DNA of 64,000 nucleotides. Origin: Candidatus Nanoarchaeia archaeon (lineage in GTDB: Archaea; Nanobdellota; Nanobdellia; SCGC-AAA011-G17; JAFCDX01). Made by a program: the position numbers and the translations under genes. The notes below the pieces were generated by a model, which was given only the letters and a program-made list of their open reading frames with translations, was not told the origin of the DNA and ran no database searches. The first letter of the stretch is position 1; every line of letters begins with the position of its first letter. Below, in pieces: positions 16,376 through 54,334 of this stretch. Location of the stretch: positions 194,202 to 258,201 of the forward strand of contig JAQUOT010000002.1 in assembly GCA_028716945.1 (NCBI GenBank), in the 5' to 3' direction.

Positions 16376-16987
16376 TTAAATCACCTCTAAAACATCTTTT
16401 CCATAAAGAGTTTTGTTATCCTTTATCAAGCTAACTATAGAAGCTTCCTTTTCTTTAAAAAGTTTTTTAAAAATGGCTATATTAATTATATCATAAGAAA
16501 TCAGTATTCCATTGCTGTATTTTTTAATAATATTCTCTATATATTTAGCATCTATCTCTTTATTTATTATTATCATTAAATCTAAATCTGATTTAAAAGT
16601 AAATTTATTTTTTATGGCAGATCCAAAAAGGATTATAGAAACGATGCCTTTTTCTTTTTTTATTTCATCTGCTATTTTTTGTGCAATATGCAAAGCTAAA
16701 TTATTTTCTTTATCAAACAAGTCTATAAGAATGTTTTTAACGAAATAATTTTCTTTGTTTATTGAGATTAATTTTACTTTCCCTTTATTAATTATCTTGA
16801 TTACTCCAGAATCAGCCAGTTCCTTTATTAAAGAAGAGATTCTTACCCTGTGTATATCTGTATTTTTTGCTAATTCATTGATATTATAGTTCCAATTTTC
16901 GTGAAGGCTTAACTCTCTTAAGAGTTTTAATTTATTTCCAGAGTTCAATATATTATCAAGTAACATTTTTGTTACATTATGTAACAT
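16376..16987 (-). CDS. winged-helix domain fused to a minimal nucleotidyltransferase (MNT)
   Basis: N-terminal wHTH, then IILFGSAIKNKFTFKSDLDLMII (GS...DxD nucleotidyltransferase motif). Confidence 0.7.
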   Translation of the reverse strand: MLHNVTKMLLDNILNSGNKLKLLRELSLHENWNYNINELAKNTDIHRVRISSLIKELADSGVIKIINKGKVKLISINKENYFVKNILIDLFDKENNLALHIAQKIADEIKKEKGIVSIILFGSAIKNKFTFKSDLDLMIIINKEIDAKYIENIIKKYSNGILISYDIINIAIFKKLFKEKEASIVSLIKDNKTLYGKDVLEVI

Positions 16988-17039: not shown

Positions 17040-17107
17040 TTTAACAGAAAAGCCCATAAATAATAAAATGTTACAATTTATGATAAAACATTAGTTTTGG
17101 AGGAAAA

Positions 17108-17347
17108 ATGGTGCAAGCGATTGTAACTTTAAATAAAAAAGAAGATAGAATATTAAATATAATTAAAGACAAATTTGGTTTAAAAAATAAATCTGAAGCC
17201 ATAAGCTTAATTGTAAATAAATATGAACAAAAATTTTTAGAACCGGAATTAAGACCTGAATTCATAGAAGAAATGAAGAGAATAAAAAAAGAAAAAACTA
17301 TTCCTTTTAAAAGTATAGAAGATTTACGTAAAAGATTTGAAAAATAG
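17108..17347 (+). CDS. small hypothetical protein (79 aa), possibly DNA-binding
   Basis: GGAGG motif 6 nt upstream of the ATG. Charged helical protein. Preferred over the antisense ORF 17071-17406. Confidence 0.45.
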   Translation: MVQAIVTLNKKEDRILNIIKDKFGLKNKSEAISLIVNKYEQKFLEPELRPEFIEEMKRIKKEKTIPFKSIEDLRKRFEK

Positions 17348-17437
17348 GTGTATTCTCCGTAAATAAACTTTCTAAAACAATTACATTTGAAAATTATAAG
17401 CATCACGATGAGATTTATAAAAATCCATTTTAAACAG

Positions 17438-21658: not shown

Positions 21659-21940
21659 TTATTTAACTTTCTTGTCTATGTAATTCCAAAGTTCTGCAAA
21701 TATCCATCCCATTACATAACCTGATAAAAAGGTTAATATCACTAGCATTAATGCATAAACTGCATTAAAATTAGAAACTTGCCAAACATTGTTCAAAAAG
21801 TGCAATGGAAATATCCAATCTAAGAATTTTTGTGTTAAACTTGTGCTTGCTAATATAAACAAAGCCCAAATTAAATGCAATCCACCAATAAAAATTCCTA
21901 AAGTTAAACCAAGCTTATTTGCGTCTAGTTTGTTTGCCAA
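21659..21940 (-). CDS. small membrane protein
   Basis: 93 aa with hydrophobic helices. Confidence 0.4.
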   Translation of the reverse strand: MANKLDANKLGLTLGIFIGGLHLIWALFILASTSLTQKFLDWIFPLHFLNNVWQVSNFNAVYALMLVILTFLSGYVMGWIFAELWNYIDKKVK

Positions 21941-22673
21941 AAATTACACCTCCTTTTTTGTGTTTTTTAAGCAATACTATTAAAGATATTATAAACATTA
22001 GAATACTTAAATATTGCGCTAAGGTTAATCCATAATAAAAAGGTAAATCCTTAAACATATCACAAATAAACCTAAATGCGCTGTATAATAGAATAAATAA
22101 CCAGAATATATATCCAGAAGGTAAGGTTCTTAAGAAATATAATATATTAAACAAAACAAAATTAGAAAATACTTGATATAATTGCACAGGATGTCTTAAT
22201 TCTGAATAATTATCAAATTTATATCCAAATATTGAATTAGTTACTTTTCCAACTAGTTCTTGATTAATAAAATTACCAATTCTAATAAACATAGCTCCTA
22301 AAGCAAAAGGTATTACAATAATATCTGCCAAATCATAGAATTTTATTTTATATTTCTTGCTAAACCATAAAGTCATTAATACATTTGCTATTATTGCTCC
22401 ATGACTAGATAAGCCTCCTTCCCAAGTATAAAATATTTTAATTGGATTAGCATAGAAATAATCAAAATTATAAAAAAGTATATGGAATAATCTTGCTCCA
22501 ATTATAGTTACGATTAAAACATATAAAAAGTATTTATCTATTAATTTTAGATCTATTTTTTTCTCTTTAGCTAATTTTCTTAATAAAAAATAACCTATAA
22601 GAAAACCTAAAGCCATTAATATTCCATACCAAGTTGCCTTTAATGGACCTAAACTAAATGCTACTGGATTCAT
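21915..22673 (-). CDS. lgt: prolipoprotein diacylglyceryl transferase homologue
   Basis: Multi-TM protein with an Lgt-like N-terminus (WYGILMALGFLIGYFL) and an RIGNFINQEL(V)G signature-like block. Confidence 0.7.
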   Translation of the reverse strand: MNPVAFSLGPLKATWYGILMALGFLIGYFLLRKLAKEKKIDLKLIDKYFLYVLIVTIIGARLFHILFYNFDYFYANPIKIFYTWEGGLSSHGAIIANVLMTLWFSKKYKIKFYDLADIIVIPFALGAMFIRIGNFINQELVGKVTNSIFGYKFDNYSELRHPVQLYQVFSNFVLFNILYFLRTLPSGYIFWLFILLYSAFRFICDMFKDLPFYYGLTLAQYLSILMFIISLIVLLKKHKKGGVIFGKQTRRK

Positions 22674-22704
22674 TACAAATAAAAAAGAATAGAAGTTTAT
22701 AAAT

Positions 22705-23253
22705 TTAAGGTTTTACTTTTAATAACTCTAAAGCTTTATTGTATGAATTATCTCCTTTGAAATATAATTCAACGTTTTCACCAAATAAAAAGTTTATTTC
22801 ATTTCCATGGACATGAGTTTGTATATATTTTGCATCTTTATTCATATTTACAACATTTGTTTGTCTTATATACCTCACTGGAAGCATAATAGAACCAGCT
22901 AACAATCCCCAGTTATGATAATTATTTCCAAAACTTATATCAGCATCTTCATAATATTTATGAACATGTCTATTTGTAGGAATTATAAGGTTATCAAAAC
23001 CTTTATTTTCTTTGTATTCTACCTTTTCTCCATTAATTATACCTAAATAAGACCTAAATTTTGTCCTTAAAGGAACGTATTCAACACAACGCTCCATATT
23101 TGGATGACGACCAGAACCACCCTCTTTTGTTAAGGAATCATCTTTTTGAGTCTGCATATTTATTATAAGAATTTGATTTCCAAGATTTGATTTTAATAAT
23201 CCAGTTAATTCATCATAATGTAATTTTTGTTTTATTTCTGCAGGTATTTCCAT
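22705..23253 (-). CDS. hypothetical protein (possibly cupin-like)
   Basis: 182-aa ORF. Confidence 0.45.
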   Translation of the reverse strand: MEIPAEIKQKLHYDELTGLLKSNLGNQILIINMQTQKDDSLTKEGGSGRHPNMERCVEYVPLRTKFRSYLGIINGEKVEYKENKGFDNLIIPTNRHVHKYYEDADISFGNNYHNWGLLAGSIMLPVRYIRQTNVVNMNKDAKYIQTHVHGNEINFLFGENVELYFKGDNSYNKALELLKVKP

Positions 23254-23325
23254 AACAAATCAAAACCAATTTATTATATAAAGATTTATAGGAAATAAAG
23301 GTATTATTAGAAAATATATTTAGAT

Positions 23326-24363
23326 TTAACCACAACTAGCTGTTGGAGTTGTGCTTGTTGCAGAACCTGTAACTGCTAAAGTTCCTGAACATTCACTTGG
23401 TGCTGTGGTATAAGCGTCACATATTGCAGTTTTATAAGCATCTGCGCCTCTTGATCCTGAATAATCTACTCCATTTATTATTAAAGTTGGAGAGCCTTGA
23501 ACCCCATATTTAGTATTCAATGTTACTTGTTCTGCTAATAAAGTTGTAGCTTGTTTATCATAACATGATTTTACTTTAGTTACATCAACTTTTACAGCTT
23601 TTGCTACAGTTTCCCAACAAGTATCTACGTTTTTATAAGTACAATCTGTTGAAACTTTTAATACATAATCCCAGAATTTATCTTTCTGTTCATTAAAGAT
23701 ACATAATTGTCTTACATCTTCATGTACTTCTTGTGCACCGTGCATTGAACAGTATTTTTCTTCTTTATCAAAGCAGTAATCTAATGGTTGTGCTCCTGCA
23801 TTTGTTGCGTAATCAGAATAAATAACATATCTTGGTATTATTTCAGTATTTTTTAATAATTTAGCAACTGGTGCCATAGCTTGCATTGCTTGTATACCAT
23901 AAGGACAATATGACATTACGAATAATTCTACTTTTGCTTTAGCTAATTTAGGAATATTTTTTTGTTGTGTTTGTGTTCCTTGATTTGTTAAAGATGTTTT
24001 AAAGTCATCAACGTTAATTAACCCCATTCCAGATAAAATTATATTTTTTCCGTCTTTTGTTGCATATACAGGAATTTCATTTCCATTGTATTCTACATTA
24101 ATCAAATATAATCCAGATTCTTCAGAAACATCTTTTAATGTTACAGTTCCTGTTTTAACTAAATAAGTATTAACAAATTTAACAGTATCTTCTGCTACTG
24201 CATTTTTGCTGCTACATCCTGAGAATTGCATAACTACCAATACAACAAAAGCAACTGCAAGAATAATAGTAGCTATTTGCCATCCATTTGTTTTTTTAAT
24301 CTTATGATGTACATTAGAAATATGATGTCTCACTTTTGATTCTTTTTTAATTTCGTCTTCCAT
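23326..24363 (-). CDS. membrane-anchored extracytoplasmic thioredoxin-fold protein (DsbA-like)
   Basis: N-terminal TM. CPYG (CxxC) thioredoxin-fold motif. C-terminal Cys-rich tail. Confidence 0.55.
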   Translation of the reverse strand: MEDEIKKESKVRHHISNVHHKIKKTNGWQIATIILAVAFVVLVVMQFSGCSSKNAVAEDTVKFVNTYLVKTGTVTLKDVSEESGLYLINVEYNGNEIPVYATKDGKNIILSGMGLINVDDFKTSLTNQGTQTQQKNIPKLAKAKVELFVMSYCPYGIQAMQAMAPVAKLLKNTEIIPRYVIYSDYATNAGAQPLDYCFDKEEKYCSMHGAQEVHEDVRQLCIFNEQKDKFWDYVLKVSTDCTYKNVDTCWETVAKAVKVDVTKVKSCYDKQATTLLAEQVTLNTKYGVQGSPTLIINGVDYSGSRGADAYKTAICDAYTTAPSECSGTLAVTGSATSTTPTASCG

Positions 24364-24421
24364 TTTACAATTTTTTTGTTATTTACTTATTTATAAAGTT
24401 TATGAATTTTTAAAATATATT

Positions 24422-24934
24422 TCAAATTATTTTATATTTCATAGAATCTTGTTCAAACGTATAACCTTCAGCAAATATAATGTCCTTGCTAAATATACCC
24501 ATTTTATTAATAGAACATTGCACTATTGTTAATTCTAACCCATATTGATAATAATCTCCTCCAAAACTAAACATATCAGAATCACTTAGTTCACACAATC
24601 CTCTTGGGTGCATATGCCAGGTTCCTATAACATCCGCATATCTATGATCTGAACCACAAGCTTCATATTTCATAGTATTTACCTGAGTACTAATTATTGT
24701 TGGTTCGTATATATTACTAATTTTCCAACCTTCTAAGGTTTTTTCTCCTCTTACACATCTTGTTGTTTCTTCTTGGTTGTTTTCATAAATATTATTAAAA
24801 TCAGTCATTATGTTTTGAGGTATTTCAACGACTCTTTCTTGAAAAACTGCTCTTCCAGTTACATAACTGCTTATAAAAAAGAGTATTATTAGAATTGTCG
24901 CAATAGAAATTTTATTTCCGTTTTTGTTTTTCAA
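24422..24934 (-). CDS. JAMM/MPN+ metalloprotease domain protein with an N-terminal signal-anchor
   Basis: VIGTWHMHPRGLCELSDSD matches the JAMM HxHx7Sx2D motif (compare Rpn11 WYHSHPGFGCWLSGVD). N-terminal TM helix. Confidence 0.6.
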   Translation of the reverse strand: MKNKNGNKISIATILIILFFISSYVTGRAVFQERVVEIPQNIMTDFNNIYENNQEETTRCVRGEKTLEGWKISNIYEPTIISTQVNTMKYEACGSDHRYADVIGTWHMHPRGLCELSDSDMFSFGGDYYQYGLELTIVQCSINKMGIFSKDIIFAEGYTFEQDSMKYKII

Positions 24935-24991
24935 ACATACACCTCTTAACTAATTACATTTGTTTTAGTTTATAAATCTTTTCTTGGTTAT

Positions 24992-25870
24992 TTATTCAAA
25001 TACCATAGAACCATAACCTACAAAATTATTATAATCTTTAAAAATATCTCCAGAATTATAATATTTTAATAATTTGGCTTTTTTACATCCCAGATTTTTT
25101 AATATTTCTAATCCAAGAGCAATAGGATATTTTCCGCAAATTGTTTTATCTTCTGTATATTCTAAAAATCCTTTAGTATCAAATTTTTTAATCAATTCTA
25201 CTGCTTGTATATCTATTTTTTCAACTTTTTTAGCAGAACCATCTTGTAAAGTATATCCATAACCAGAACCATAATGAGTAAAATCAGAACTTATAATTAA
25301 CTGAAATCTTCTATCTAATTTAGAAAATAATTTTCCAACTTTCCTGCAAGTTTCAAAATCAATATCAGAAACAGTAATAGGTAATATTCTTAATTTTTGT
25401 AAATTATCTTTTGAAATAAATTGTAAAAAAGGTAATTGTACTTCTAAAGAATGTTCTACTCTGTGTGCATTTTCATCTCTTTTAATATTATTTTCATTTA
25501 ATAATTCTAAAAAATCTTTAATTTCTATAGAATTCATATCAGAAATATTTTTAACTAATCCAAAAGGAGTCTGCCAATCTTGTAAACTTAAAGCAATATT
25601 ATTCCCAGTAAAAGCAGTATGATTTACTCCAAGCATAATATAAAATTCAGGAAATTTTGCTTCTCCTAATTCTTTGTAAGAATAACTTGCACAAGGCCCA
25701 GAATAGGTATAGCCTGCATGAGGTGTTATTACTCCAAAAATATTTTTTGTTCTTTTCCCAGGCAATTTTCCAGGTCCTAATTTAGATAAAAAACAATTTT
25801 TTATTTCTTCTTCTAACTCTTGCAAATCTCCTGGATAAAATTGGTTATTTACGATAGGTATTCTTGTCAT
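24992..25870 (-). CDS. Memo-like protein (AmmeMemoRadiSam system protein B family)
   Basis: N-terminal MTRIPIVNNQFYPGD and overall Memo1-family pattern. Confidence 0.75.
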   Translation of the reverse strand: MTRIPIVNNQFYPGDLQELEEEIKNCFLSKLGPGKLPGKRTKNIFGVITPHAGYTYSGPCASYSYKELGEAKFPEFYIMLGVNHTAFTGNNIALSLQDWQTPFGLVKNISDMNSIEIKDFLELLNENNIKRDENAHRVEHSLEVQLPFLQFISKDNLQKLRILPITVSDIDFETCRKVGKLFSKLDRRFQLIISSDFTHYGSGYGYTLQDGSAKKVEKIDIQAVELIKKFDTKGFLEYTEDKTICGKYPIALGLEILKNLGCKKAKLLKYYNSGDIFKDYNNFVGYGSMVFE

Positions 25871-27588
25871 TTCTTAAGATAATTTATTTCTATTAAGTAT
25901 AATATAATTAAAATTATTATTACAATAAAAATCCAAGGGACAACTAATTTGAGATAATAAAAAGCATAAACTCCTATTGAACATTTTGGACAATTTACTC
26001 CACAATCAATTCCAATTTCATTTGCATCTTTAACTCCATTTTCACAGTGATTTACTGATTCTAAATTTCTAATGTTTTTAGGAGTTTCAGGAGCTTCTAG
26101 ATTTCTCTGAATTAATGTTGCAGGAGCTACAATGGTTTGGCCTTCCCTATTTCCACCAGAACTACCCCCACCTCCACCGCCTCCACCACCAGAATCACCA
26201 GAAGTTTCATGAGCATTTTTTTCTCCAATCAAACTAAAAACATTTACAAAATTATATAAACTTAAATTATAATAATTATTTTCTTTATAATAATCAGCAG
26301 ATATTAAAGTGTTATTAACGTATAAGTTTAAACTAGATTCATTTATATCTAATTCTATTAATTTTGATTGATTGTAGTACATTTCAAATAAACCATTTAT
26401 AAAAATATTATTAATATCTAATTCTAGGATAAACTCTGCTATGCTTAAATTTCCTTTTTCGGCAAGAACATAACTTTTATTAAAAGTAATATTTGTTATA
26501 TTTTCAGAAGTATATAAAGTTAAAATATTTGTTGTTATCTCATTTTCTATAGTGAGCATTCTTTTATAATTACAACTTGGGCAAGAACCTCCACAGTCAA
26601 TTCCTGTTTCATCTCCATTTTGCATTTCATCTATACATGTTGGTTCACAATCATCTCCAACACCATCAAAATCAGTATCCATCTGATCTTCATTATTAAC
26701 GAAATCGCAATTATCACATTCGTCACCAAAATAATCTGTATCAGAATTATTTTGTTCTGGATTGTAAACATCTAAACAATTATCATATTCATTTATTACA
26801 GAATCGTTATCAACATCTCCTGTATCGGTTATGTTTTTGAATTCAAACTGAATCCATTGATTATTTTTTGAATCATCATAAAAGATTCCATACTCCAAAT
26901 CTCCTGTAGCTTCAAAGATTTCTTCTTTACTGTTATTCCATTTTCCATCATAAATATGCTTGCTTATTTTATAGGTTACAAACCAAGTTGAAGAATCAAA
27001 ATGAAATATGATATTAGTTGGATTTGAATATCCTGATGCTTGTTTTTCTAGATTAATTAAAATTAAATCTTTTTTCTTTTGAACTTGGAAGAAAACATCA
27101 TTGTAATCCTTATCTGCCTGATCTAAAGGTAAATCTTCAAAACCAGTCCAAAATTCTCTCTGCGTTTTTTGTTCTTTATCTAACCAAGAAAAAATTGAAT
27201 CTTCTCCGCTATTCTGATTTATAGAAGAAAAATTCTGGCTTAAATACCAATATTGTTCGGTAGTTGCATTTAAATCAAGAGAACAATTTTCAATATCAGA
27301 ATTACAAAGCATTACCAATCCATTTTGTTCTTTCCAATTCCATCTTAAATCTCCATTTCCCTTATTTATTATGTTATAATCTATTACCCCTTTAGAAGAA
27401 GTTAGGATTTTATCAAAATTATTAGAATTAATTATCTCGTAAGCTGTTTCATTTCCAGTATATTCATAATTAGGATTATATACAACAAAACCAGTAATAT
27501 TTACTCCTATTAAAAAGGTTAATAATAAAATAGCCATTATAGCAATACCGATAAGAACATAATCCTCTATTTTTTTAACTAAAGACAT
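25867..27588 (-). CDS. surface protein with thrombospondin type-3-like Ca-binding repeats, a poly-Gly linker, a Cys module and a C-terminal TM
   Basis: Asp-rich repeats (DVDNDSVINEYDNC, DTDFDGVGDDCE). GGGGGGGGG run. C-terminal hydrophobic anchor. Confidence 0.55.
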   Translation of the reverse strand: MSLVKKIEDYVLIGIAIMAILLLTFLIGVNITGFVVYNPNYEYTGNETAYEIINSNNFDKILTSSKGVIDYNIINKGNGDLRWNWKEQNGLVMLCNSDIENCSLDLNATTEQYWYLSQNFSSINQNSGEDSIFSWLDKEQKTQREFWTGFEDLPLDQADKDYNDVFFQVQKKKDLILINLEKQASGYSNPTNIIFHFDSSTWFVTYKISKHIYDGKWNNSKEEIFEATGDLEYGIFYDDSKNNQWIQFEFKNITDTGDVDNDSVINEYDNCLDVYNPEQNNSDTDYFGDECDNCDFVNNEDQMDTDFDGVGDDCEPTCIDEMQNGDETGIDCGGSCPSCNYKRMLTIENEITTNILTLYTSENITNITFNKSYVLAEKGNLSIAEFILELDINNIFINGLFEMYYNQSKLIELDINESSLNLYVNNTLISADYYKENNYYNLSLYNFVNVFSLIGEKNAHETSGDSGGGGGGGGGSSGGNREGQTIVAPATLIQRNLEAPETPKNIRNLESVNHCENGVKDANEIGIDCGVNCPKCSIGVYAFYYLKLVVPWIFIVIIILIILYLIEINYLKK

Positions 27589-27648
27589 ATATTTATAAAC
27601 ACTTTTTTATTTATAAAACTTTATATATTTTTCTGATATCTAAATTCT

Positions 27649-29451
27649 ATGAAATTGGGGTTTAAAAGATTATTGGCAGGTATAGCCTTAACCGGTTTTT
27701 CTTTATTAGCAAAAGCAGAAGCCAAATTTGATTCTTATAGTGATAGAATTGTTTTAACAGAAAAGAATCGTAAATATGCTGGAAGAAAAGTTGTTAATCG
27801 TGAAGAAAAAGTAGCTGGTTGGTATATTGTTGATATTACTGATGAAAAACATAAAAATGTAATCGGGGATGAAAAATATGAAGAAAAACAATATAGAGAT
27901 TTAGCATTTATGTTTGAAATGGAAAAAGATATGCCAATATATTATAAAACCATTGAGAATGCAAGTAATGGTTTTAAAAAAATATTAGCAGCTCAATTAG
28001 GAGTAGAAGCATTAAGATTTACTTATAATACTTTAGTAGATATAGAAGGTTCTTTAGGTGCTTCTGTTGCAACAGGAGGAGCAAATTTATCTGGTGAAGG
28101 ACAAAAATACCTTGTAAGAGAAATTTTTGGAGATTCTCTAGAAGAAATTAATCAGACCTTTAGTAATAATTTAGAATCAAAATATTCAGAAATAGAAAAA
28201 AAAGTAAAAGCAATAAATTCTAAGGATTTAGAAAAAATAATTTCTGGAGAAGAATCAGAATACGTTAATGATTTAAAAAAATTACTTATAAAAGAATTAA
28301 ACAAATCTGTTCATACCAAATTATCAAAAGCAATTGTTCAATTAGAATTAGCCATAAAATATGCTTTAGAAAATAACAGAAGTCTTGCAGAAAATGAAAA
28401 AATGTTTAAGTCTCTTGTAGAAGGGATAAGTGTAGGATTTGGAGTTACGGCTTATTATGTTGAAATGAATGAAAACAATAGTATGGATAATCTTGCAAGA
28501 ACAATTATTATTAGAGGATCAAAAGGAGCAGGCGTTCCATTGAATGCTGTAATAAACAATAAAAAAATATTAGAAGCTCTTAAAGAAGAGAATCACTATC
28601 AAAACGCGGTTAAAAAAAGCGCAGCAAAAACAAGAGAATGGCAAAGAAAACTTTACATTACTTTTAATACAAATTGGGAAGGAGAACGTGTTGAAAGATT
28701 ATTAGATTATATTCAAGAAAACAAACCAAAAGAAAAAAAACCTGCAGAACCTATACAACAAACTCCAAAAGAAAACCAACCTCAAGAAATTATTTTAAAA
28801 GAAGGAACAATGAATATTGATCTAAACAACGATGGAGTAAAAGAATCAATAACTTCGAAGTTTTTCTATAATGAAAGAAATGGAGTATATTTTAATTATG
28901 TTATAATAAACAACACACCACAGATTGGTTCTTGTTCTGATATGAAGCTAGTTAAAACAAAAAATAACGAATATAACCTTTATGTTACTAAAATGACAGA
29001 TGTAGAACCTGATGCTTTGAAAACTTGCACTGTAAAAGAGCGTTATTCTTGGAATGGAGGTATTCCTGTATTAGAATCTACTTCTGGTGAGCCCATACAA
29101 CAAAAACCTAAGATTGAAGTAACTGAAGAAACTAAGCAAACTAAAAGAAGGGTTATGATGAATTATCTTGCTTCTCTTTTTTATGCCAATATATCATATT
29201 TTTCAGATTATAATCAATTTCCTCCTTATTATTCAGGAAACTTAGATAATTATTCAAAACACTTTAAAGAAGCGCGAGGATTAGAATATTATAAAAATAG
29301 TTTCATAGGAGCTACCTGTAATTTAATTTTCAACCCTGTAACTACTTCAAATTTTATTGCTGAATTAAAATGCAATTTAGATAACGATAATGATTTAGAA
29401 ATTTGGAGAATAGATGAAGGCAAAAGATTAGTGCAATTAAATAAAGATTAA
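27649..29451 (+). CDS. secreted hypothetical protein (600 aa)
   Basis: Cleavable signal peptide MKLGFKRLLAGIALTGFSLLAKAEA. Confidence 0.5.
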   Translation: MKLGFKRLLAGIALTGFSLLAKAEAKFDSYSDRIVLTEKNRKYAGRKVVNREEKVAGWYIVDITDEKHKNVIGDEKYEEKQYRDLAFMFEMEKDMPIYYKTIENASNGFKKILAAQLGVEALRFTYNTLVDIEGSLGASVATGGANLSGEGQKYLVREIFGDSLEEINQTFSNNLESKYSEIEKKVKAINSKDLEKIISGEESEYVNDLKKLLIKELNKSVHTKLSKAIVQLELAIKYALENNRSLAENEKMFKSLVEGISVGFGVTAYYVEMNENNSMDNLARTIIIRGSKGAGVPLNAVINNKKILEALKEENHYQNAVKKSAAKTREWQRKLYITFNTNWEGERVERLLDYIQENKPKEKKPAEPIQQTPKENQPQEIILKEGTMNIDLNNDGVKESITSKFFYNERNGVYFNYVIINNTPQIGSCSDMKLVKTKNNEYNLYVTKMTDVEPDALKTCTVKERYSWNGGIPVLESTSGEPIQQKPKIEVTEETKQTKRRVMMNYLASLFYANISYFSDYNQFPPYYSGNLDNYSKHFKEARGLEYYKNSFIGATCNLIFNPVTTSNFIAELKCNLDNDNDLEIWRIDEGKRLVQLNKD

Positions 29452-29452
29452 T

Positions 29453-30541
29453 CTAATTAAAATACTCAGCTAGGCGTTTGTATTTTTTATTTCTGCTTAT
29501 CTTACCTCTTAATTTTCTTAAAGCTCTTTCTTCAATCTGTCTTATTCTTTCTCTTGAATTACCCATCTCTTTTCCTATTTCTTGTAAAGTACATGCTTCT
29601 TCATCTAAACCAAACCTTCTTCTTATAATTTGTTCTTCTCTAGGAGACAATTGGGATAATAATTCTTTAAGACTATCTTTTACTTCTTGTTTATAGATAA
29701 TTTCATTAACAGAAGGCTGCGGGTCTTTAACTGTATCTATATATTCTGTATCTGTTTCATCAGCAACTAATTCATCCAAAGAAACAACCCTATGCAAACC
29801 ATCTTGCCCCATTAAAAAAATATACAATGCTTCAGCGCTTATATTCATCTTTTTTCTTAGATTATCTAATCTCTTCGGATTTAATTTACTTAATTTTTCT
29901 CTTGTACATAATTTGTGCAATTTTGTTAAGTCTTCACGAAGATAATATGGCAGGACAATTAATCCACTATTTTCATGAGCAGCACGCTTCATTTGTTGAA
30001 TAATCCACCAACCTGAATAAGTGGAAACAGTATTTCCCTTAGTATAATCAAATTTTCCTATACTTTTTAATAAACCTATACTTCCTTCTTGTATAAGATC
30101 TACAAATTCCATATAAGGAGGCCTGTGTCTTTCAATAGCAGCCAATTTTACATCGAATCTTAAATTTCTTACAACTAAAAAATTTCTTTTTTCTAAGGCT
30201 TTTTTATGAAGTTCTCTTATTTTTTCTTTTGTTGTATATAACCTTTTTTTATTCAATCCATATTCTTTTATTTTTTCTTTATTATTACATAATTCATAAA
30301 AGTCTACCAAAAATTTGTCTAATAGATTATAATTTATTGTTGCTTTGTTATCATCCACTAAACTATTTAAAGTTCCATTAAGTTTGTTAACTAATTGGGG
30401 GTATTTGTTTAAAGTTTTTAAAATTCTTACTTTAATATCTTCAAATTCTTTAAAGTGTTGTGTATGCTCCTCTCTGGTTAAAACAGGTATATTTTTTATC
30501 TGTTCATACAAGAGATTTATTTGTGGGATGTATCCTGGCAT
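29453..30541 (-). CDS. sigma-70 family RNA polymerase sigma factor (bacterial type)
   Basis: Region 2 (DLIQEGSIGLLKSIGKFDY...STYSGWWIIQQMKRA) and region 4.2 (LQEIGKEMGNSRERIRQIEERALRKLR) both present. Confidence 0.85.
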   Translation of the reverse strand: MPGYIPQINLLYEQIKNIPVLTREEHTQHFKEFEDIKVRILKTLNKYPQLVNKLNGTLNSLVDDNKATINYNLLDKFLVDFYELCNNKEKIKEYGLNKKRLYTTKEKIRELHKKALEKRNFLVVRNLRFDVKLAAIERHRPPYMEFVDLIQEGSIGLLKSIGKFDYTKGNTVSTYSGWWIIQQMKRAAHENSGLIVLPYYLREDLTKLHKLCTREKLSKLNPKRLDNLRKKMNISAEALYIFLMGQDGLHRVVSLDELVADETDTEYIDTVKDPQPSVNEIIYKQEVKDSLKELLSQLSPREEQIIRRRFGLDEEACTLQEIGKEMGNSRERIRQIEERALRKLRGKISRNKKYKRLAEYFN

Positions 30542-30564
30542 TTTAATAAAAAAGCATAAAAAAT

Positions 30565-30572
30565 TATTTAAA
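30565..30572 (-). promoter_or_regulatory. TATA-like box (TTTAAATA on the minus strand) ~27 nt upstream of the sigma-factor ATG
   Basis: Sequence and spacing typical of archaeal leaderless promoters. Confidence 0.3.
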
Positions 30573-30782
30573 ACTATCTAAAGTAGGAGATTTTGGGTTA
30601 AAAGGAATTGGCTTTGGATTAGCATTATTACTAAATTTAGCCCACTTGATTTAAAAAATAAACTAGGGATAACAAAAGAAAAACTTGAATTTATATTAAA
30701 GAAATTAGAAAAAAGACAAGTTATAAAAGAACGTGAAGGACAAAATCCACAAATATTCTTTAATGATTGGTTAAAATAAGAA

Positions 30783-31247
30783 TTATTTTTGTACAACTTC
30801 TGTTGGTTGAACTTTTGCTTCAAGACTTTCAGTAATATGTTTCTCTACAACTCTTTTTTCTGCATTATTATAAACAAATCTTCCAATTTCATAAGCTCCA
30901 GAAATTACATTTGTTACAATAGGGAGTAATAAAAATTCAGGATAATCGTTTCCAACCCAACTATATAAATCGAGTTGAATAGGCAAAGATAAAAACCCTA
31001 TTGTTGCACCAAGTATAGTTGCTGAATCTTCAAGAGTACCATAATCTTCAAGTTTTTTCTTTTTGTTTGATCTCCCTATAATAGCCCTAGGAATAATATA
31101 AGGTATAACATGTACTATAGCCGCAGCTCCTAAAAAATTTTTAGATAAAACTTTTAAAGATTTATAAACTTCAACAAATTCATTTTCGGTATTATTACAA
31201 ACTTCTTTTAATACTTCTTTCTTTGTAAGTTTATATGTTTCTACCAT
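30783..31247 (-). CDS. hypothetical protein (possible membrane protein)
   Basis: 154-aa ORF downstream of RpoK. Confidence 0.4.
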   Translation of the reverse strand: MVETYKLTKKEVLKEVCNNTENEFVEVYKSLKVLSKNFLGAAAIVHVIPYIIPRAIIGRSNKKKKLEDYGTLEDSATILGATIGFLSLPIQLDLYSWVGNDYPEFLLLPIVTNVISGAYEIGRFVYNNAEKRVVEKHITESLEAKVQPTEVVQK

Positions 31248-31326
31248 CCTTAATAAAGATAAATATTAATTTATAAATCTTTCTATATGTAACTACTTTA
31301 AAGTTGTTAGAAATAAAAAAAGAAAT

Positions 31327-31542
31327 TTATTCTGTTCTTGGAGGTAAAGGCCTTTTAATAGTAATAGGTAAAATACCTTTAGTTAGCTCTAATTTAGCTA
31401 TTTCTATAGGATTATAGTTTAACTTGTCAAGTTCTTCAGGCTTTAATTTAAGTAACAAAGGAGCACCCATTGCTATTTGTAAAGCTCTTGCTCCAATTAT
31501 TCTTGCTACTTCATATTTTGTAAACTTGAATTCTTTTTCCAT
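31327..31542 (-). CDS. rpoK: DNA-directed RNA polymerase subunit K (Rpo6)
   Basis: ARIIGARALQIAMGAP motif. 71 aa. Confidence 0.75.
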   Translation of the reverse strand: MEKEFKFTKYEVARIIGARALQIAMGAPLLLKLKPEELDKLNYNPIEIAKLELTKGILPITIKRPLPPRTE

Positions 31543-31576
31543 ATCTTTACCTATTTCTTACTATTTTTAAAGGTTG

Positions 31577-32338
31577 TTATTTCTTTAATAGTTTCCTTAG
31601 CTCTTCTGTTTTTTTAACAGCTAAGTCAACCATTTCCTCTATTTCTTTGTCTGTTAATGCTTGATCTCCACCTTTTTGCATAGCACATAATTGTTTACCA
31701 ATTGTAGCTATAGTCAATCTTGCATCTGCTGCTTTTTCTTCTTCTCTGCTTGGATCTATAAACAGATGGTTGTCAATTTTAACAACAGTGCATTCAACAG
31801 GCACTTTGGATAAAGGAATACCTTTACTAGTTTTTTTAGTGTAATCTACTTTTTCATCTTTGTATTCTGGTAATTTAGCATCTTGTAATGCTGCAATTCC
31901 AGCCAAAGCTGCTGCATCAAATAAGTTTCCATCATCATTCATTGGATAAATATCTAATAATACCATCCAAACTTTTTCTCCTTTTTTAATGCATAATTTT
32001 TTAGTATCTATTGTACCAGATTCTCTAATACCTCTATCAACAACTCTTGATAATTCTATAGCTTCTATAGAAGGTGGACCAGATTCAAAATCTGGATTTG
32101 CCAAAGGTAATAATTCTGAATTAACCATTAAAACTCCATCGTCTGGAGTATCTGGAAAAGGTGTACCTACTTCCATTTTAACACCAGCTAATACAACAGT
32201 TTTTCCCATCGTAACTCTTGCAGAACCTTCTGCATTTTCTAATGGACTATATTCAACTTTTACTGGTCTGTATTCATCAAATTTTCTGTTATCTAATCTA
32301 AATCCTTTTTCTGCTAAAGTATGTACGTGTGATTTCAT
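31577..32338 (-). CDS. rrp42: exosome complex RNase PH-like subunit Rrp42
   Basis: RNase PH fold pattern. Overlaps rrp41 by 4 nt. Confidence 0.8.
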   Translation of the reverse strand: MKSHVHTLAEKGFRLDNRKFDEYRPVKVEYSPLENAEGSARVTMGKTVVLAGVKMEVGTPFPDTPDDGVLMVNSELLPLANPDFESGPPSIEAIELSRVVDRGIRESGTIDTKKLCIKKGEKVWMVLLDIYPMNDDGNLFDAAALAGIAALQDAKLPEYKDEKVDYTKKTSKGIPLSKVPVECTVVKIDNHLFIDPSREEEKAADARLTIATIGKQLCAMQKGGDQALTDKEIEEMVDLAVKKTEELRKLLKK

Positions 32339-33021
32339 TTTCCGTATTTCTCCCTTAAAGCTTTTTTCTGTACTTCATATACTTTTTCACAAGCTTTTTT
32401 TCCTATTTTCATAAATTCTTTTATGTCGTCTTTTTCTACAATACCATCCATTTGCATTAAAGTTATTGCTCCAGTTCTAGGCATCATAGCTATTGGAAAA
32501 TCAACACCTTCTTCTGCTGAATCTTCTTCATAATTTAAATCTGCAATAAAATCACCTTTGAATTTTCCAGCAGAAACAGCTGAAACTAAATCTCTCATTG
32601 GTATTCCTGCATCTGCAAGAGCCATTGCTGCAGCGCTAATTCCTGCACATCTTGTTCCAGCATCTGTATTTATCAATTCAACATAAACATCTACTACTGC
32701 ATTTGGAAATGCTGATAAATCCACAGCAGGTAATAATGCTTTTTCTGTTACTAAAGATATTTCTCTTGATCTTCTAGATGGACCTGGTCTAACTCTTTCT
32801 CCACCGCTGGAAAAAGATATCATATTATAATTGCATCTCAAAACTCCAACTTCTGGATTTTGTAAATATGCTTGGAAATCTCTAGGACCATAGACTGCTG
32901 CAATTGCTGTTGTTTTTCCAATTTTGAACATAGCTGAACCAGCTGCGTTTGGAATAACTCCAACTTTTGCTTCCATCTTTCTTAATTCGTCAAATTTTCT
33001 TCCATCAATTCTCTTTACCAT
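32335..33021 (-). CDS. rrp41: exosome complex exonuclease Rrp41
   Basis: GRKFDELR...GSAMFKIGKTTAIAAVYGP is the RNase PH catalytic-subunit pattern. Confidence 0.88.
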   Translation of the reverse strand: MVKRIDGRKFDELRKMEAKVGVIPNAAGSAMFKIGKTTAIAAVYGPRDFQAYLQNPEVGVLRCNYNMISFSSGGERVRPGPSRRSREISLVTEKALLPAVDLSAFPNAVVDVYVELINTDAGTRCAGISAAAMALADAGIPMRDLVSAVSAGKFKGDFIADLNYEEDSAEEGVDFPIAMMPRTGAITLMQMDGIVEKDDIKEFMKIGKKACEKVYEVQKKALREKYGK

Positions 33022-33023
33022 TT

Positions 33024-33788
33024 TTATTTCTCCTTCTTCTTGGATTCTTTTTCTTCTTTAACTTCTTCTTTTTTCTCTTCAACTTTTTTTTCTTTTTTGA
33101 TTCCAAGTTTATCATTTAAATATTTTTCAATACTATCAGTAAGACCTTCGGATTGGCTTTCTTTGTCTATAATATCAATAGCATCTACTGCTACTTTTTC
33201 CTTAATAGGATCTAATCCTGATATCCAAACATTTCCGTTTTGTCCTACCAAAATTCTTGTTTCTGTCTTTTCTTTAATCATAGTTATCATAGAACCTTGT
33301 TTTCCAATTAATCTTGGAACTTTTGAAGGTGTAATTTGTATCATTCTTCCTTCTGTAAGTTTTCTTAATCCAGGACCTTTCATTCCTAAATCAATAACTT
33401 TGGATCCAGATACATTTACAATTCTTACCATTAATATATCTCCAATATTATAAAATTGTGTTAAGTCTGTTCCACGTTCTATAAATTCTTGTGTTGCGTC
33501 TTTCAAAGATAACATTGCCTGATAAGCCCATCTGATATCTACTCTCCATCCCCAAGGGCCAATATCAACAACTTTTCCAATAACAACATCGTCCCTTCTT
33601 GGTATGTAAGGACCTGTTAAAGGAATTATTTTTATTAATCTTCCATTAAGGTTTACTAAACCTACCATAGAAGAAATTATATTATCTTCTTCTCTAAATG
33701 TTCCATGAGCAGGTAAAAAATCCATACCTTTTGCTAAAATTTGCCCAGGAATCACTACTTCTTTTTCCTGTACTAGTAATTCTGACAT
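33024..33788 (-). CDS. rrp4: exosome RNA-binding subunit Rrp4 (S1 + KH), Lys/Glu-rich C-terminal tail
   Basis: S1 and KH (LIGKQGSMI) motifs. Confidence 0.85.
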   Translation of the reverse strand: MSELLVQEKEVVIPGQILAKGMDFLPAHGTFREEDNIISSMVGLVNLNGRLIKIIPLTGPYIPRRDDVVIGKVVDIGPWGWRVDIRWAYQAMLSLKDATQEFIERGTDLTQFYNIGDILMVRIVNVSGSKVIDLGMKGPGLRKLTEGRMIQITPSKVPRLIGKQGSMITMIKEKTETRILVGQNGNVWISGLDPIKEKVAVDAIDIIDKESQSEGLTDSIEKYLNDKLGIKKEKKVEEKKEEVKEEKESKKKEK

Positions 33789-33803
33789 TTTTTCATTTCT
33801 CCT

Positions 33804-34505
33804 TTAAAATTTTCTGACTATATCAACGACAACTTGTCCATGTGTTGCCTTGTTTAGAGCATCTAATAAATCTTCTTGCATTCCTGCTGGAATTTCAAGA
33901 GATACTTTCAATGATCCATCATTTTCATAGTTTTCTTTTATTAATTTACCGAACATTTTTAATGTACCATATGTTTTACCAACATGTTCTGGTTTTATTT
34001 TTATGGACAATTCTCTTTTTTCATATTTTATTGGTAAAATCTCTCTTAATTGTTTTATTACGTCTTCAACCTGTCCTTCAGCGGTTTTAGTTGCATTAAT
34101 ATTTACTCTAGCTTCTTTCATTGCCATTTCAATTCTTGCTGTAGGATGAGGAAATCCAGTTTTTGAGTCTACTGTATTTTTATGAATAATATCTACTATT
34201 CTTTTTTTCTTTTCGTCTTGTAGTTTATTTTTGTGTTCTGTAGTTAATTGTATTTCTCCTTCTCTTACTATACGTTCAATTATTGCATTTTTATCTGTTG
34301 TTTTGAAAACAGCTTGCAGTTCCTTTTCAGGACTGTGCTCTGCTTGCTTAACATCAGAGAAAACATCATCGGTTACTAAAACTTCAGATATATTTTTTAT
34401 TTTTCCTTCTCTAAATAGAATTGCTTTGTCGCAATCTACTAATATTTCAAAGGTTTTTCCTTCACGTTTAAAACGTGCAATAACTGAACTTTCAATATTC
34501 GTCAT
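33804..34505 (-). CDS. sdo1: ribosome maturation protein SBDS/Sdo1
   Basis: SBDS N-terminal FYSN-like domain pattern. Located in the superoperon. Confidence 0.8.
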   Translation of the reverse strand: MTNIESSVIARFKREGKTFEILVDCDKAILFREGKIKNISEVLVTDDVFSDVKQAEHSPEKELQAVFKTTDKNAIIERIVREGEIQLTTEHKNKLQDEKKKRIVDIIHKNTVDSKTGFPHPTARIEMAMKEARVNINATKTAEGQVEDVIKQLREILPIKYEKRELSIKIKPEHVGKTYGTLKMFGKLIKENYENDGSLKVSLEIPAGMQEDLLDALNKATHGQVVVDIVRKF

Positions 34506-34513
34506 TTTTACAA

Positions 34514-35227
34514 TTAATTATTATATTTTTTTAAGTCTGGAACATCTAATCTTACAAATTTCTTATCTGCAGATTTTATATAAGCTCCATCTATTCTTGC
34601 TAAATCAAAATCTTTATTCAAGACTTTTTTAAGCATTTTTATTGTTAATTTTATTCCTTCTTCTATTGTTATGTTGTCTTTGTATTCTTTATCAAGCATT
34701 TCTTTTATTTCAACTTCTGCTTCTCCAATTGCTGTTGCTTTGTATTGGAAAAATATTCCAGTAACATCAGTCAAGAATAATCTTGGTTCACTTTCATCTA
34801 TTCCACCAAAAATTATTGAAACTCCAAATGGTCTTCCTCCACCATATTGTGTATATGCTTGTTTTACATTACAAATTTCTTTTACTAAAGTCATTGTATC
34901 AATAGGATTGTCATAAGTAACTTTGTGCTGCTGAGCTAATAATTGAGCTCTTTCAATTAATATTCTTGCATCGCTAATAATACCGGATGCACCTGCTGCA
35001 ATATGATCATCTACTTGGAAAATTTTCTCAATAGATTTTGCAACTATGAACTTGTCAAAAATTCTTTTGTCAGCCATTATTAAAACACCATCTTTACATA
35101 CTAGACCAACTGTTGTACTTCCTTGTTTTACTGTTTTTTTTGCGTATTCTGCTTGTAATAATCTTCCATCTGGACTAAACATAGCACTTCTATCATATCC
35201 CATCATTTGTGACATATTTGTTTGCAT
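34514..35227 (-). CDS. psmA: proteasome alpha subunit
   Basis: YDRSAMFSPDGRLLQAEYA N-terminal signature. Confidence 0.9.
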   Translation of the reverse strand: MQTNMSQMMGYDRSAMFSPDGRLLQAEYAKKTVKQGSTTVGLVCKDGVLIMADKRIFDKFIVAKSIEKIFQVDDHIAAGASGIISDARILIERAQLLAQQHKVTYDNPIDTMTLVKEICNVKQAYTQYGGGRPFGVSIIFGGIDESEPRLFLTDVTGIFFQYKATAIGEAEVEIKEMLDKEYKDNITIEEGIKLTIKMLKKVLNKDFDLARIDGAYIKSADKKFVRLDVPDLKKYNN

Positions 35228-35239
35228 TTTATTCCTCCT

Positions 35240-35590
35240 TTAATTTAGATATCTAAATTTTGCTTTTTTTAATATTCCTGAAACACCAAGGCATTTAACA
35301 ATTACCTTTTTGTTATTTATTTCTTTTATTAAAGAAAAACAAGATTTGAGAGCGTCAGTATATTTATTATTAACAAACATAATACCTTTAGAAGTATTAT
35401 TTTGTGTTTTCCAGTCTTCTAACATTATTAAATTAGCTTTTGCCAATCCAAATTTCCCGTAATATTCTTTGTAAGTTTCCATTATTGTATTTTCAGCGCT
35501 AGCTTTATTAATTGGGCTTTCAGATATAACCTCGAAAGCAACATACCTCTTCTTTTCTCTTAAGCTAGGCATTAAAGCTTTTAACTTCAT
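35240..35590 (-). CDS. rnp2: RNase P protein component 2 (Pop5/Rpp14)
   Basis: LREKKRYVAFEVISE motif. First gene of the superoperon. Confidence 0.7.
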   Translation of the reverse strand: MKLKALMPSLREKKRYVAFEVISESPINKASAENTIMETYKEYYGKFGLAKANLIMLEDWKTQNNTSKGIMFVNNKYTDALKSCFSLIKEINNKKVIVKCLGVSGILKKAKFRYLN

Positions 35591-35732
35591 TTTATCAAGT
35601 TTTTAGGAGAATTAAACAATTATTTTTTCAAAATCTTCTCCATCTCTCGCATATACTCTAAAATATACTTATATTTAAATTTTGTGTATTTTATAGAAAT
35701 AAGTTTATATATTAAGAAATTTACTTAAATAT

Positions 35733-36485
35733 ATGATTTCGGGTGTTATATGGTTATACAGCTTAGTTAGCGTATTAATTATTAGCTTGATTTCTTTAAT
35801 AGGTATTTTTTCTTTGAAAATAAAAATTGAAAAATTAAAGCAAATTTTGATTTATTTCATAAGTTTTTCAGCAGGAGCTTTGTTAGGAGATGCATTTATA
35901 CATTTAATTCCAAGTTTGTTCAAAGAAAGTTCTGCTATAATTTCTGCTTTAACTATTTTACTAGGAATAATCTTATTTTTTATTCTAGAAAAAGTAATAC
36001 ATTGGAGACATTGTCATATACCAATTACAAAAGAGCACGTGCATCCTTTAGCTTATATGAATTTAGTTGGAGATTCTTTACATAATTTCATTGATGGATT
36101 AATTATAGCAGGATCTTATTTAATTAATATTCAAGTTGGAATTGCAACAACTCTTGCAGTTATATTACATGAAATTCCACAAGAAATAGGAGACTTTGGA
36201 GTTTTACTACATGCAGGATTAAAAAGAACAAAAGCATTATTTTTAAATTTTGTAACAGGTTTAACAGCAATACTAGGAACAATAATTGCTTTAATATTAA
36301 CTAATTATATTTCAAATTTGCAATTTTATATAACCGGAATTGCAATTGGTGGATTTATTTATATTGCAGGAAGTGATTTAATTCCAGAAATGCACAAAGA
36401 AGTTAAATTAGAAAAATCAATTTTACAATTAGTATTTTTAATTCTAGGAATTTTAGTAATGTTAAGTTTATTATTGTTAGAATAA
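35733..36485 (+). CDS. ZIP family metal (zinc) transporter
   Basis: HEIPQEIGDFGVLL motif. Eight TM helices. Confidence 0.85.
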   Translation: MISGVIWLYSLVSVLIISLISLIGIFSLKIKIEKLKQILIYFISFSAGALLGDAFIHLIPSLFKESSAIISALTILLGIILFFILEKVIHWRHCHIPITKEHVHPLAYMNLVGDSLHNFIDGLIIAGSYLINIQVGIATTLAVILHEIPQEIGDFGVLLHAGLKRTKALFLNFVTGLTAILGTIIALILTNYISNLQFYITGIAIGGFIYIAGSDLIPEMHKEVKLEKSILQLVFLILGILVMLSLLLLE

Positions 36486-38589: not shown

Positions 38590-39306
38590 TTGAGTATATG
38601 TTTATTAAAAATGAATGAAATCAAGCATATCGCACTTATTTTGGACGGTAACAGACGTTTTGCCAAGCGTTTGATGTTAGAGCCATATAAAGGTCATGAA
38701 TATGGTGCTGCAAAACTAGAAAAATTGTTTGAATGGTGTCAAGAATTAGACATTAAAGAAATAACACTATATGCTTTTTCTATACAAAATTTTAACAGAC
38801 CTAAAGCAGAATTTGATTATTTAATGGATATTTTCAAGAAAGAATTTGATAGATTAAAAGATGATAAAAGGATATTTGATAATAAAGTAAAAATTAATGT
38901 TATTGGAAGAATAGATATGTTCCCTAAAGATTTACAAGAGAGAATGCATTATATTATGGAAAAAACAAAAAATCATGATAAATATATTATTAATTTTGCA
39001 TTAGCCTATGGTGGAAGAGAAGAAATTATTGATACTATTAAAAAAATAGGAAGAAAAATTGAACTTGGTGAAGTAAAACCTGAACAGGTTACAGAAGAGC
39101 TAGTAAATGCAAGTTTGTATATGAAAGATGAACCTGATTTTATTATAAGAACTGGTGGAGATCAGAGAACTTCTAATTTCTTGATATGGCAGTCTAATTA
39201 TTCTGAATGGTTTTTCCTAGAAAAATGCTGGCCAGAATTTGAGAAAGAAGATTTAATACAATGTATTAATGAATTTAAAACTAGAGAAAGAAGATTTGGA
39301 AAATAG
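38590..39306 (+). CDS. uppS: cis-prenyltransferase (undecaprenyl diphosphate synthase). True start may be the internal Met at ~38611.
   Basis: HIALILDGNRRFAKR motif and the C-terminal RTGG...SNFLIWQ motif. Confidence 0.88.
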   Translation: MSICLLKMNEIKHIALILDGNRRFAKRLMLEPYKGHEYGAAKLEKLFEWCQELDIKEITLYAFSIQNFNRPKAEFDYLMDIFKKEFDRLKDDKRIFDNKVKINVIGRIDMFPKDLQERMHYIMEKTKNHDKYIINFALAYGGREEIIDTIKKIGRKIELGEVKPEQVTEELVNASLYMKDEPDFIIRTGGDQRTSNFLIWQSNYSEWFFLEKCWPEFEKEDLIQCINEFKTRERRFGK

Positions 39307-54332: not shown

Positions 54333-54334
54333 AT

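Follow-up and report, generated by a model that had tools for sequence, protein, structure and literature searches.

A gene for a sigma-70-family protein lies within a 64,000-nucleotide stretch of Candidatus Nanoarchaeia archaeon DNA (contig JAQUOT010000002.1, positions 194,202 to 258,201), which is called the window hereafter. Sigma factors on one side and TBP/TFB on the other represent the textbook divide between bacterial and archaeal/eukaryotic transcription initiation, so that a sigma factor kept in archaea is a natural experiment on mixing the two initiation systems. The window open reading frame codes for a true sigma-70-family protein of the primary-like type, which has regions 2 and 4, apparently also regions 1.2 and 3, and lacks region 1.1. 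The gene was horizontally acquired and has been integrated for long, having resided in its host, a small and very AT-rich DPANN archaeon, long enough to gain the host codon usage and an archaeal TATA element at the position found in leaderless genes. The explanation preferred as a whole, to which a probability of roughly 55% is attributed, is that a long-resident acquired sigma-70 factor was domesticated as a free-standing DNA-binding regulator of TBP/TFB transcription.

The presence of a sigma gene in an archaeon was presented as unexpected in an earlier reading of the same DNA (the original prediction), but the existence of the gene is no news because the occurrence in DPANN archaea is published and the protein is already annotated. 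An identical protein, annotated as a sigma-70 family factor, is deposited at NCBI from a 267,750-bp contig of a Candidatus Nanoarchaeia metagenome-assembled genome (MAG). Castelle et al. (2021; PMC8204110) described sigma-70 genes of family fam00359 in DPANN, found them "particularly prevalent in Woesearchaeota", excluded mis-binning through the phylogeny of co-encoded proteins, identified no anti-sigma factors in their survey and left the mechanism open. The window gene is a new, unusually isolated member of this published set. The present analysis adds a residue-level picture of two archaeal sigma factors. Both retain the helix that docks on the core, the tryptophans involved in melting and the helix that reads the -35 element, and both have lost the contacts of regions 2.4/3.0 with duplex DNA. 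Region 1.1 is lost in the window protein, whose gene appears wired, from a weak match, to a promoter of the archaeal leaderless type. The kept and lost residues and the archaeal promoter narrow the functional hypotheses.

Identity and residue-level anatomy of the protein

Pfam recognizes region 4 (Sigma70_r4, PF04545) at amino acids (aa) 294-345 with an E-value of 1.9e-18 and 66.1 bits for a cut-off of 24.1, and region 2 (Sigma70_r2, PF04542) at aa 140-187 with 2.1e-9 and 37.5 bits for a cut-off of 24. In NCBIfam the model RpoD_Cterm aligns to aa 120-356 at 5.6e-50 and the sigma-70 superfamily model TIGR02937 is passed with 93.8 bits (cut-off 42.9). The equivalog cut-offs for RpoD, SigA and RpoS are all missed by far (170.2 bits of 354 for RpoD_Cterm, 156.9 of 555 for PRK05658 and 146.6 of 572 for PRK09210). 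The top relative of solved structure is Clostridioides difficile SigA (7l7b_F; 3.6e-38, aa 105-355), with dozens of primary sigma factors ranking behind it. The AlphaFold2 model, computed with 76 homologues in the alignment, has a mean predicted local distance difference test score (pLDDT) of 83.8, with values above 90 in aa 10-190 and in region 4 and of 70-82 in the helical bundle of region 3; only the 3.2 linker (aa 248-273) falls below 50. When this model is compared with the PDB by Foldseek, the only matches are primary sigma factors in holoenzyme and open-complex structures, with alignments spanning the whole protein.

The original call of a sigma-70 factor with region 2 and a region 4.2 helix-turn-helix is correct in view of these Pfam, NCBIfam, solved-structure and AlphaFold2/Foldseek matches, and the motifs on which it was based, including the region 2 pair DLIQEGSIGLLKSIGKFDY...TYSGWWIIQQMKRA, are all found in the protein. 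An unrelated helix-turn-helix family is ruled out by Pfam, NCBIfam, the SigA structure match and Foldseek. Among the three region profiles proposed for verification, those of regions 2 and 4 score above their gathering cut-offs while region 3 (PF04539) is undetected in the sigma protein even at E<=10. Region 1.2 (PF00140) is likewise undetected at this threshold.

Regions 1.2 and 3 both appear to be present though diverged. Amino acids 8-57 align by BLASTP to region 1.2 of the bacterial sigma P0008 (E=2e-5), the segment PQINLLYEQIKNIPVLTREEH is a column match to DPVRMYLKEIGxVxLLTxEEE in the 76-sequence alignment, and helices are predicted by AlphaFold2 at positions 5-16 and 23-44 with pLDDT above 90. 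Region 3 aligns contiguously to RpoD_Cterm and to SigA. Region 1.1, the acidic autoinhibitory N-terminal domain, is absent because the protein begins at region 1.2; PF03979 gives no match in the sigma protein, while most of the bacterial matches do carry it. The insert between regions 1.2 and 2.1 is helical in the AlphaFold2 model and missing from the Firmicutes-type SigA in the alignment. The reading frame is intact from ATG to stop. The original description of the gene as complete is not quite accurate, since the protein lacks region 1.1 and has diverged heavily in regions 2.4/3.0.

Residues are numbered as in Escherichia coli sigma70, the numbering being checked on K-12 RpoD taken from NC_000913.3. 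Region 2.2, DLIQEGSIGLLK, is near-canonical and keeps D403, Q406, E407 and G408, with the change N409S. Region 2.3 carries the substitutions Y425N, K426T and F427V but retains F419, Y421, Y430, W433 and W434. Q437 and R441 are likewise retained, and ADQAR is converted to HENSG. The nearly invariant 2.3-2.4 block is replaced by IIQQMKRAAHENSGLIVLPYYL, with the changes R436I, T440K, R448G, R451V and H455Y, and the 2.4/3.0 segment by HENSGLIVLPYYL; P453 is kept. Over a block of 24 positions only 8 identities are left, a score shared by the window protein and its archaeal relative P0153 (see below) that is the lowest of full-length proteins among 353 sigma factors. In a bacterial control, all 80 metagenome loci (80/80) keep WWIRQ(A/S)I(T/S)R(A/S)I(A/S)D(Q/H)(A/G)RTIRIPVHM almost unchanged. 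Region 3 retains E458, has Y at the position of H455 and lost the ETPIG motif that precedes the sigma finger. In region 4.2 the equivalents of R584, E585, R586, R588 and Q589 are all kept.

Table 1. Coordinates of the sigma gene, its regions and the elements upstream of it, in window positions
Feature	Position	Strand	Description
Sigma-70-family gene	29453..30541	-	362 aa, ATG start, stop codon at end
Region 1.2	30410..30529	-	aa ~5-44; protein starts here
Non-conserved helical insert between 1.2 and 2.1	30191..30409	-	aa ~45-117, ~70 aa
Region 2	29969..30190	-	aa ~118-191; core-binding helix 2.2, -10 recognition/melting 2.3-2.4
Region 3	29687..29968	-	aa ~192-285; diverged 3.0 (H455Y, R451V), 3.2 linker
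Region 4	29501..29686	-	aa ~286-347; canonical 4.2 helix-turn-helix SRERIRQIEERALRKLR
Weak archaeal TATA-like element	30563..30578	-	GATAGTTTTAAATAAT; starts 37 nt before the sigma ATG, without BRE (B recognition element)
Start-less winged-helix-like frame	30582..30776	+	65 aa; in the spacer, head-to-head with the sigma start
154-aa gene	30783..31247		between exosome operon and sigma gene; own strong promoter

Archaeal neighbourhood, promoter and authenticity of the gene

The same strand carries, upstream of the sigma gene, the genes coding Pop5 (Rpp14), the proteasome alpha subunit (PsmA), SBDS, Rrp4, two RNase PH proteins (Rrp41/42) and RpoK (Rpb6). Domain searches recover this series as it had been predicted. 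Elsewhere the window codes for a threonyl-tRNA synthetase with the archaea-specific editing domain and for RNase P p30; scans of the window with Rfam and for tRNAs, aimed at taxonomic anchors, gave nothing. The sigma gene was originally placed directly downstream of this exosome superoperon, a relation that proved to be only positional. The sigma gene is outside the exosome transcription unit because the separately promoted 154-aa gene and a spacer of 241 bp intervene. At its other end, the sigma gene and a convergent gene (27649-29451) coding a 600-aa protein with a signal peptide and no family match terminate 1 nt apart, which leaves no intergenic room for terminators.

The frame found in the spacer has no ATG, GTG or TTG start and gives only sub-threshold Pfam matches to helix-turn-helix families (HTH_micro 0.0093, HTH_Crp_2 0.026, TrmB 0.086). 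It is probably the remnant of a gene truncated at its 5' end, possibly cut upon arrival of the sigma gene. The start-less winged-helix-like frame noted originally does exist, with the corrections that it is on the strand opposite to the sigma gene and that its helix-turn-helix matches are sub-threshold.

A position weight matrix for promoters was derived by expectation-maximisation motif search in the 80 nt upstream of the 62 other window genes. It yielded a sharp archaeal BRE/TATA consensus, RAAAGGTTTATAAATA, with a modal start at -35/-36 relative to the start codon, a position fixed in many genes and seen, for example, upstream of 30783-31247, 8815-9606 and 47119-47670. This fixed position implies that the window mRNAs are largely leaderless. 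The promoter of the 154-aa gene ranks near the top, with 17.4 bits at -36, and RpoK has one of its own (11.7 bits at -35), both being internal promoters near the end of the exosome cluster. The sigma site GATAGTTTTAAATAAT reaches 5.2-5.4 bits, to which its TATA part contributes 6.0 and its BRE part -0.7. The same score is attained somewhere in ~16% of 80-nt coding controls; the chance of a site of this strength within 5 positions of the modal start is ~0.012. The archaeal TATA element predicted ~27 nt upstream of the ATG is therefore borne out as a weak but correctly placed element.

It could be supposed that the sigma gene is foreign to the archaeon, as the product of an assembly chimera, as a mis-binned bacterial fragment or as the cargo of a virus or plasmid. 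The nearest sequence relatives are indeed bacterial RpoD/SigA, with ~40% identity, and the protein matches the phage sigma family phrog_351 at 1.4e-50. However, this score is no better than those of cellular RpoD models, and two independent Logan assemblies of different runs, SRR22315508 and SRR22315506, are 100% identical to stretches of the window (22248-34286 and 25427-36385, respectively) that span both borders of the sigma gene. The junctions are found as well in the 267-kb contig. GC content is flat across the window (0.24-0.34) and no compositional or codon break is found at the sigma gene, which has a GC of 0.282, a GC at third codon positions (GC3) of 0.179 and a codon usage z of -0.86 relative to 63 genes in a leave-one-out synonymous-codon likelihood. 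The codon usage resembles that of the neighbours, as had been stated from inspection of the sequence, and the promoter is at the archaeal position. A chimera and mis-binning are ruled out by the two exact run-level assemblies, the flat GC and the neighbour-like codon usage.

A phage, plasmid or defence origin is ruled out by the neighbours and by the nature of the matches. None of the seven proteins neighbouring sigma has a match in PHROG. PADLOC reports only the generic MzaA, for the sigma protein, and, in the 600-aa neighbour, AriB at a marginal E of 4.8e-4. Phage sigma factors (PHROG 351) and MzaA are sigma-70 proteins outside the housekeeping role that act on bacterial polymerase, and their profile scores are comparable to that of the window protein. 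The latter differs from them by having no viral or defence neighbourhood, its MzaA match having 165 bits for a cut-off of 800. The exact assemblies, flat GC, codon usage, archaeal genes and PHROG/PADLOC results together effectively exclude a chimera, a mis-binned fragment and a prophage, leaving a negligible probability for any artefact or foreign DNA.

The gene is thus rightly read as horizontally acquired and long integrated, because it codes for a true sigma factor, sits in an archaeal contig without a chimeric join, has a neighbour-like composition and is preceded by a TATA-like element. Within the original proposal of an integrated, expressed acquisition, integration stands, while expression is suggested only by the weak promoter match.

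Bacterial and archaeal relatives

A word-indexed search in 5.8 billion cluster representatives found the closest relatives at ~43% identity over regions 2-4, and all named matches are bacterial RpoD. When 1.84 billion representatives at 50% identity were searched exhaustively with HMMER, 82,754 matches were obtained, among which the protein itself is the only one above 50% identity. The next-best HMMER match (P0121, 173 bits) is encoded in a bacterial dnaG-rpoD operon; the window sigma lies outside any such operon. P0121 (541 aa; L005 4151-5776) features a C-terminal tandem duplication of regions 3-4, either real or an assembly repeat.

The window protein and the bacterial primary sigma factors (C. 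difficile SigA, E. coli RpoD) have in common the apparent order 1.2-2-3-4, ~40% identity over regions 2-4, the full-length fold, a near-canonical region 2.2, Y430, W433, W434, Q437 and R441, and the canonical 4.2 reading helix. The window protein differs from them in being archaeal, with an archaeal-type promoter, in lacking region 1.1, in reaching ~170 bits where the RpoD equivalog cut-offs are 354-572, and in having diverged 2.4/3.0 regions and regions 1.2 and 3 below detection by Pfam.

The sole archaeal protein among the matches aligned over their full length is MFO8016056.1 (P0153), of 383 aa, from a Candidatus Woesearchaeota MAG. Its contig carries Rpo11 and ribosomal protein S7. This protein, rather than the fam00359 sequences, is the basis of comparison with DPANN sigma factors. 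Both archaeal sigmas have an archaeal context with no anti-sigma nearby, a Pfam pattern of regions 2 and 4 only, and derived states that are without counterpart in bacteria, namely WW(I/V)xQxMKR...ENxG, IIRRRFGL, LQEIG and SRERIRQIxER. They share also the motif DKATI..LD..F..C in the insert, and their N-termini alone match by BLASTP at E=4e-4. P0153 differs from the window sigma by an N-terminus ~40 residues longer, by F/K/F instead of N/T/V at positions 425-427, by an identity of only 31-34% and by a non-syntenic neighbourhood. The gene of P0153 is directly followed by one for a prenyltransferase of the undecaprenyl-diphosphate-synthase type (L006 568-2506). The same type of enzyme is encoded at 38590-39306 (+) of the window, 8 kb from sigma, which is probably a coincidence.

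In a neighbour-joining tree of 151 sequences and 216 columns, the window sigma and P0153 form a pair with a bootstrap of 54/100. Both are long branches, their median distance being ~1.2 compared to 0.76 among bacterial sequences. The evidence suggests that the two proteins constitute a small, fast-evolving archaeal lineage with common ancestry in archaea, short of proof because of the bootstrap value and the long branches. The phylogenetic placement proposed originally thus gave the pairing at low bootstrap, and the proposed search for syntenic sigma genes in archaea gave one archaeal sigma in a different gene order.

Other searches brought no further archaeal member. In a scan for close relatives across GTDB species, each covered by a single genome, only Thermomonospora (35%) and a fragment of region 4 from Saccharibacteria came up; the yield was so low because matching relies on exact peptide patterns. 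A scan of metagenome contigs that started from the alignment of the two archaeal sequences relied on bacterial-like motifs, and its 80 loci were without exception canonical bacterial RpoD. Word-indexed searches with the archaeal pair, or with archaeal-specific segments only, recovered no additional archaeal sigma from an index dominated by bacterial RpoD, and other DPANN sigmas may have been missed for this reason. The failure to recover more members is probably a search bias toward conserved bacterial motifs. Five of the most divergent matches of the HMMER search, checked for an archaeal context, were rejected: P0215 has a bacterial context (trigger factor, SSB), P0183 is from a phage, and P0200, P0268 and P0196 are bacterial.

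Possible function and alternatives

The window sigma is most likely a domesticated, free-standing, sequence-specific DNA-binding protein. Its region 4.2 helix-turn-helix, possibly with region 2, would contact the target DNA, and the bound protein would modulate TBP/TFB-dependent transcription at a subset of genes. It would not be a classical promoter-specificity subunit. A free-standing DNA-binding regulator is indicated by the missing region 1.1 and by the lack of partners: no bacterial RNA polymerase (RNAP) subunit or anti-sigma factor was found among the Pfam-surveyed genes of the window, where archaeal RpoK is the sole RNAP gene near sigma. This reading is also the most economical one because sigma70 devoid of region 1.1 binds DNA alone and the 4.2 helix is intact. 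Dombroski et al. are said to have found in 1992/1993 that promoter DNA is bound by sigma70 fragments lacking region 1.1 even when no core polymerase is present. The window sigma likewise starts at region 1.2 with regions 2 and 4 intact; the deleted sigma70, however, was made in the laboratory from a bacterial protein, whereas the window sigma is a natural archaeal one whose DNA binding is putative.

Several points weigh against a free-standing regulator. No DNA motif that could be the sigma target was found, the 64 kb of the window giving little power to such a search. Expression of the gene is deduced from a weak promoter match. Just one archaeal relative was recovered, and its pairing with the window sigma has a bootstrap of 54% on long branches that may attract each other. 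Finally, the conserved region 2.2 (Q406, E407) and the single-strand-binding aromatic residues fit a polymerase-bound role better than that of a simple repressor or activator.

The last point is the root of the main rival to the regulator, hybrid initiation, in which the 2.2 helix docks on the clamp coiled-coil of the archaeal RNAP at the TFE/Spt5 site and the protein acts as a polymerase-bound melting factor. It would help to open, or direct RNAP to, a subset of the AT-rich promoters in which the TATA box (TTTATAAAT) looks like a -10 element. The clamp coiled-coil is conserved in archaeal RNAP and used by TFE and Spt5. The archaeal pair keeps the exposed 2.2 helix and the whole -35-reading helix of region 4.2, and D403, Q406, E407, Y430, W433, W434, Q437 and R441 are kept in both proteins despite their low identity. 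The architecture sigma2-sigma3-sigma4 with a flexible 3.2 linker is retained in the predicted structure, and TATAAA lies inside the TATA consensus of the genome. On the other hand, the near-universal 2.4/3.0 duplex contacts around -12 to -17 are lost (R436I, T440K, R448G, R451V, H455Y), as is ETPIG.

Genomic sites do not favour hybrid initiation either and are in line with a free-standing regulator. Composite -35/-10 sites (TTGACA-17-TATAAT) are not enriched between 22 and 38 kb, where 82 are found for 100.6 +/- 10.4 expected. TTGACA by itself occurs 18 times compared to 39 in dinucleotide shuffles, a depletion that is a composition effect because it vanishes under higher-order Markov models (expectations of 21.5 for the second-order and 17.7 for the maximal-order model). 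To our knowledge there is no precedent for initiation by a sigma factor and an archaeal RNAP. Hybrid initiation is accordingly considered quite unlikely. Its explicit form, a bacterial sigma recruited into archaeal initiation with region 2.2 on the clamp and with W433/W434/Y430 and region 4.2 opening or selecting TATA promoters, is held to be decidedly improbable. If true, it would be a natural hybrid of two domain-specific initiation systems.

The protein might instead be an evolutionary relic, a transferred sigma without present function whose gene has not yet decayed. Partner polymerase and anti-sigma factors are lacking, in the window and, for anti-sigma factors, in the survey of PMC8204110. 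The promoter is weak and without BRE, the branch is very long with degenerate 2.4/3.0 regions that are normally invariant, and the protein stands alone at 50% identity in a set of 1.84 billion representatives. Against decay, the frame of 362 codons is intact and identical in three assemblies. Its fully ameliorated codon usage argues for long residence, during which an unselected AT-rich reading frame would have gained stop codons. Motifs of 2.2, 2.3 and 4.2 are conserved in a relative only 31-34% identical, and the AlphaFold2 model is confidently folded. Moreover, sigma-70 genes are prevalent across Woesearchaeota (PMC8204110). A decaying relic appears disfavoured by the intact, ameliorated frame and the motif conservation and is regarded as unlikely.

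It can also be envisaged that sigma is delivered to a bacterial partner, or acts on its RNAP, as a cross-domain effector. Action on a bacterial host polymerase was one of the two roles suggested originally, the other being that of a DNA-binding regulator. Regions 2.2 and 4.2 are nearly canonical for binding of the bacterial core and of the -35 element. Yet the N-terminus is region 1.2 itself with no signal peptide discernible by eye, searches of the neighbourhood revealed neither a secretion system nor mobile elements, and residues for normal -10/extended -10 function with a bacterial polymerase are lost. According to PMC8204110, those hosts of DPANN that are known are other archaea. Nothing specific speaks in favour of an effector, which is thus highly improbable.

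A few further features of the window deserve mention. At 21915-22673 (-) lies the gene for a prolipoprotein diacylglyceryl transferase of full length (Lgt; PF01790, 1.1e-64), a second typically bacterial function in the contig. The neighbouring genes for a HEPN-domain protein (125 aa) and a nucleotidyltransferase (203 aa) at 15998-16987 (-) are probably a toxin-antitoxin pair of the HEPN/MNT type. The nucleotidyltransferase gene (z = -2.3) and the gene next to it (17071-17406; z = -2.2) are outliers in codon usage, but the HEPN gene (z = -0.4) is not. GAATTC occurs 26 times in the window for ~63-65 expected from Markov models and words related to CTTAAG are depleted as well, which may reflect restriction-site avoidance. 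Three large adjacent genes at 50278-56437 (-) resemble those of typical DPANN giant surface proteins; MopE-type metal-binding motifs are found in the 1078-aa and 276-aa proteins and an MG2 (alpha-2-macroglobulin-like) domain in the 700-aa protein.

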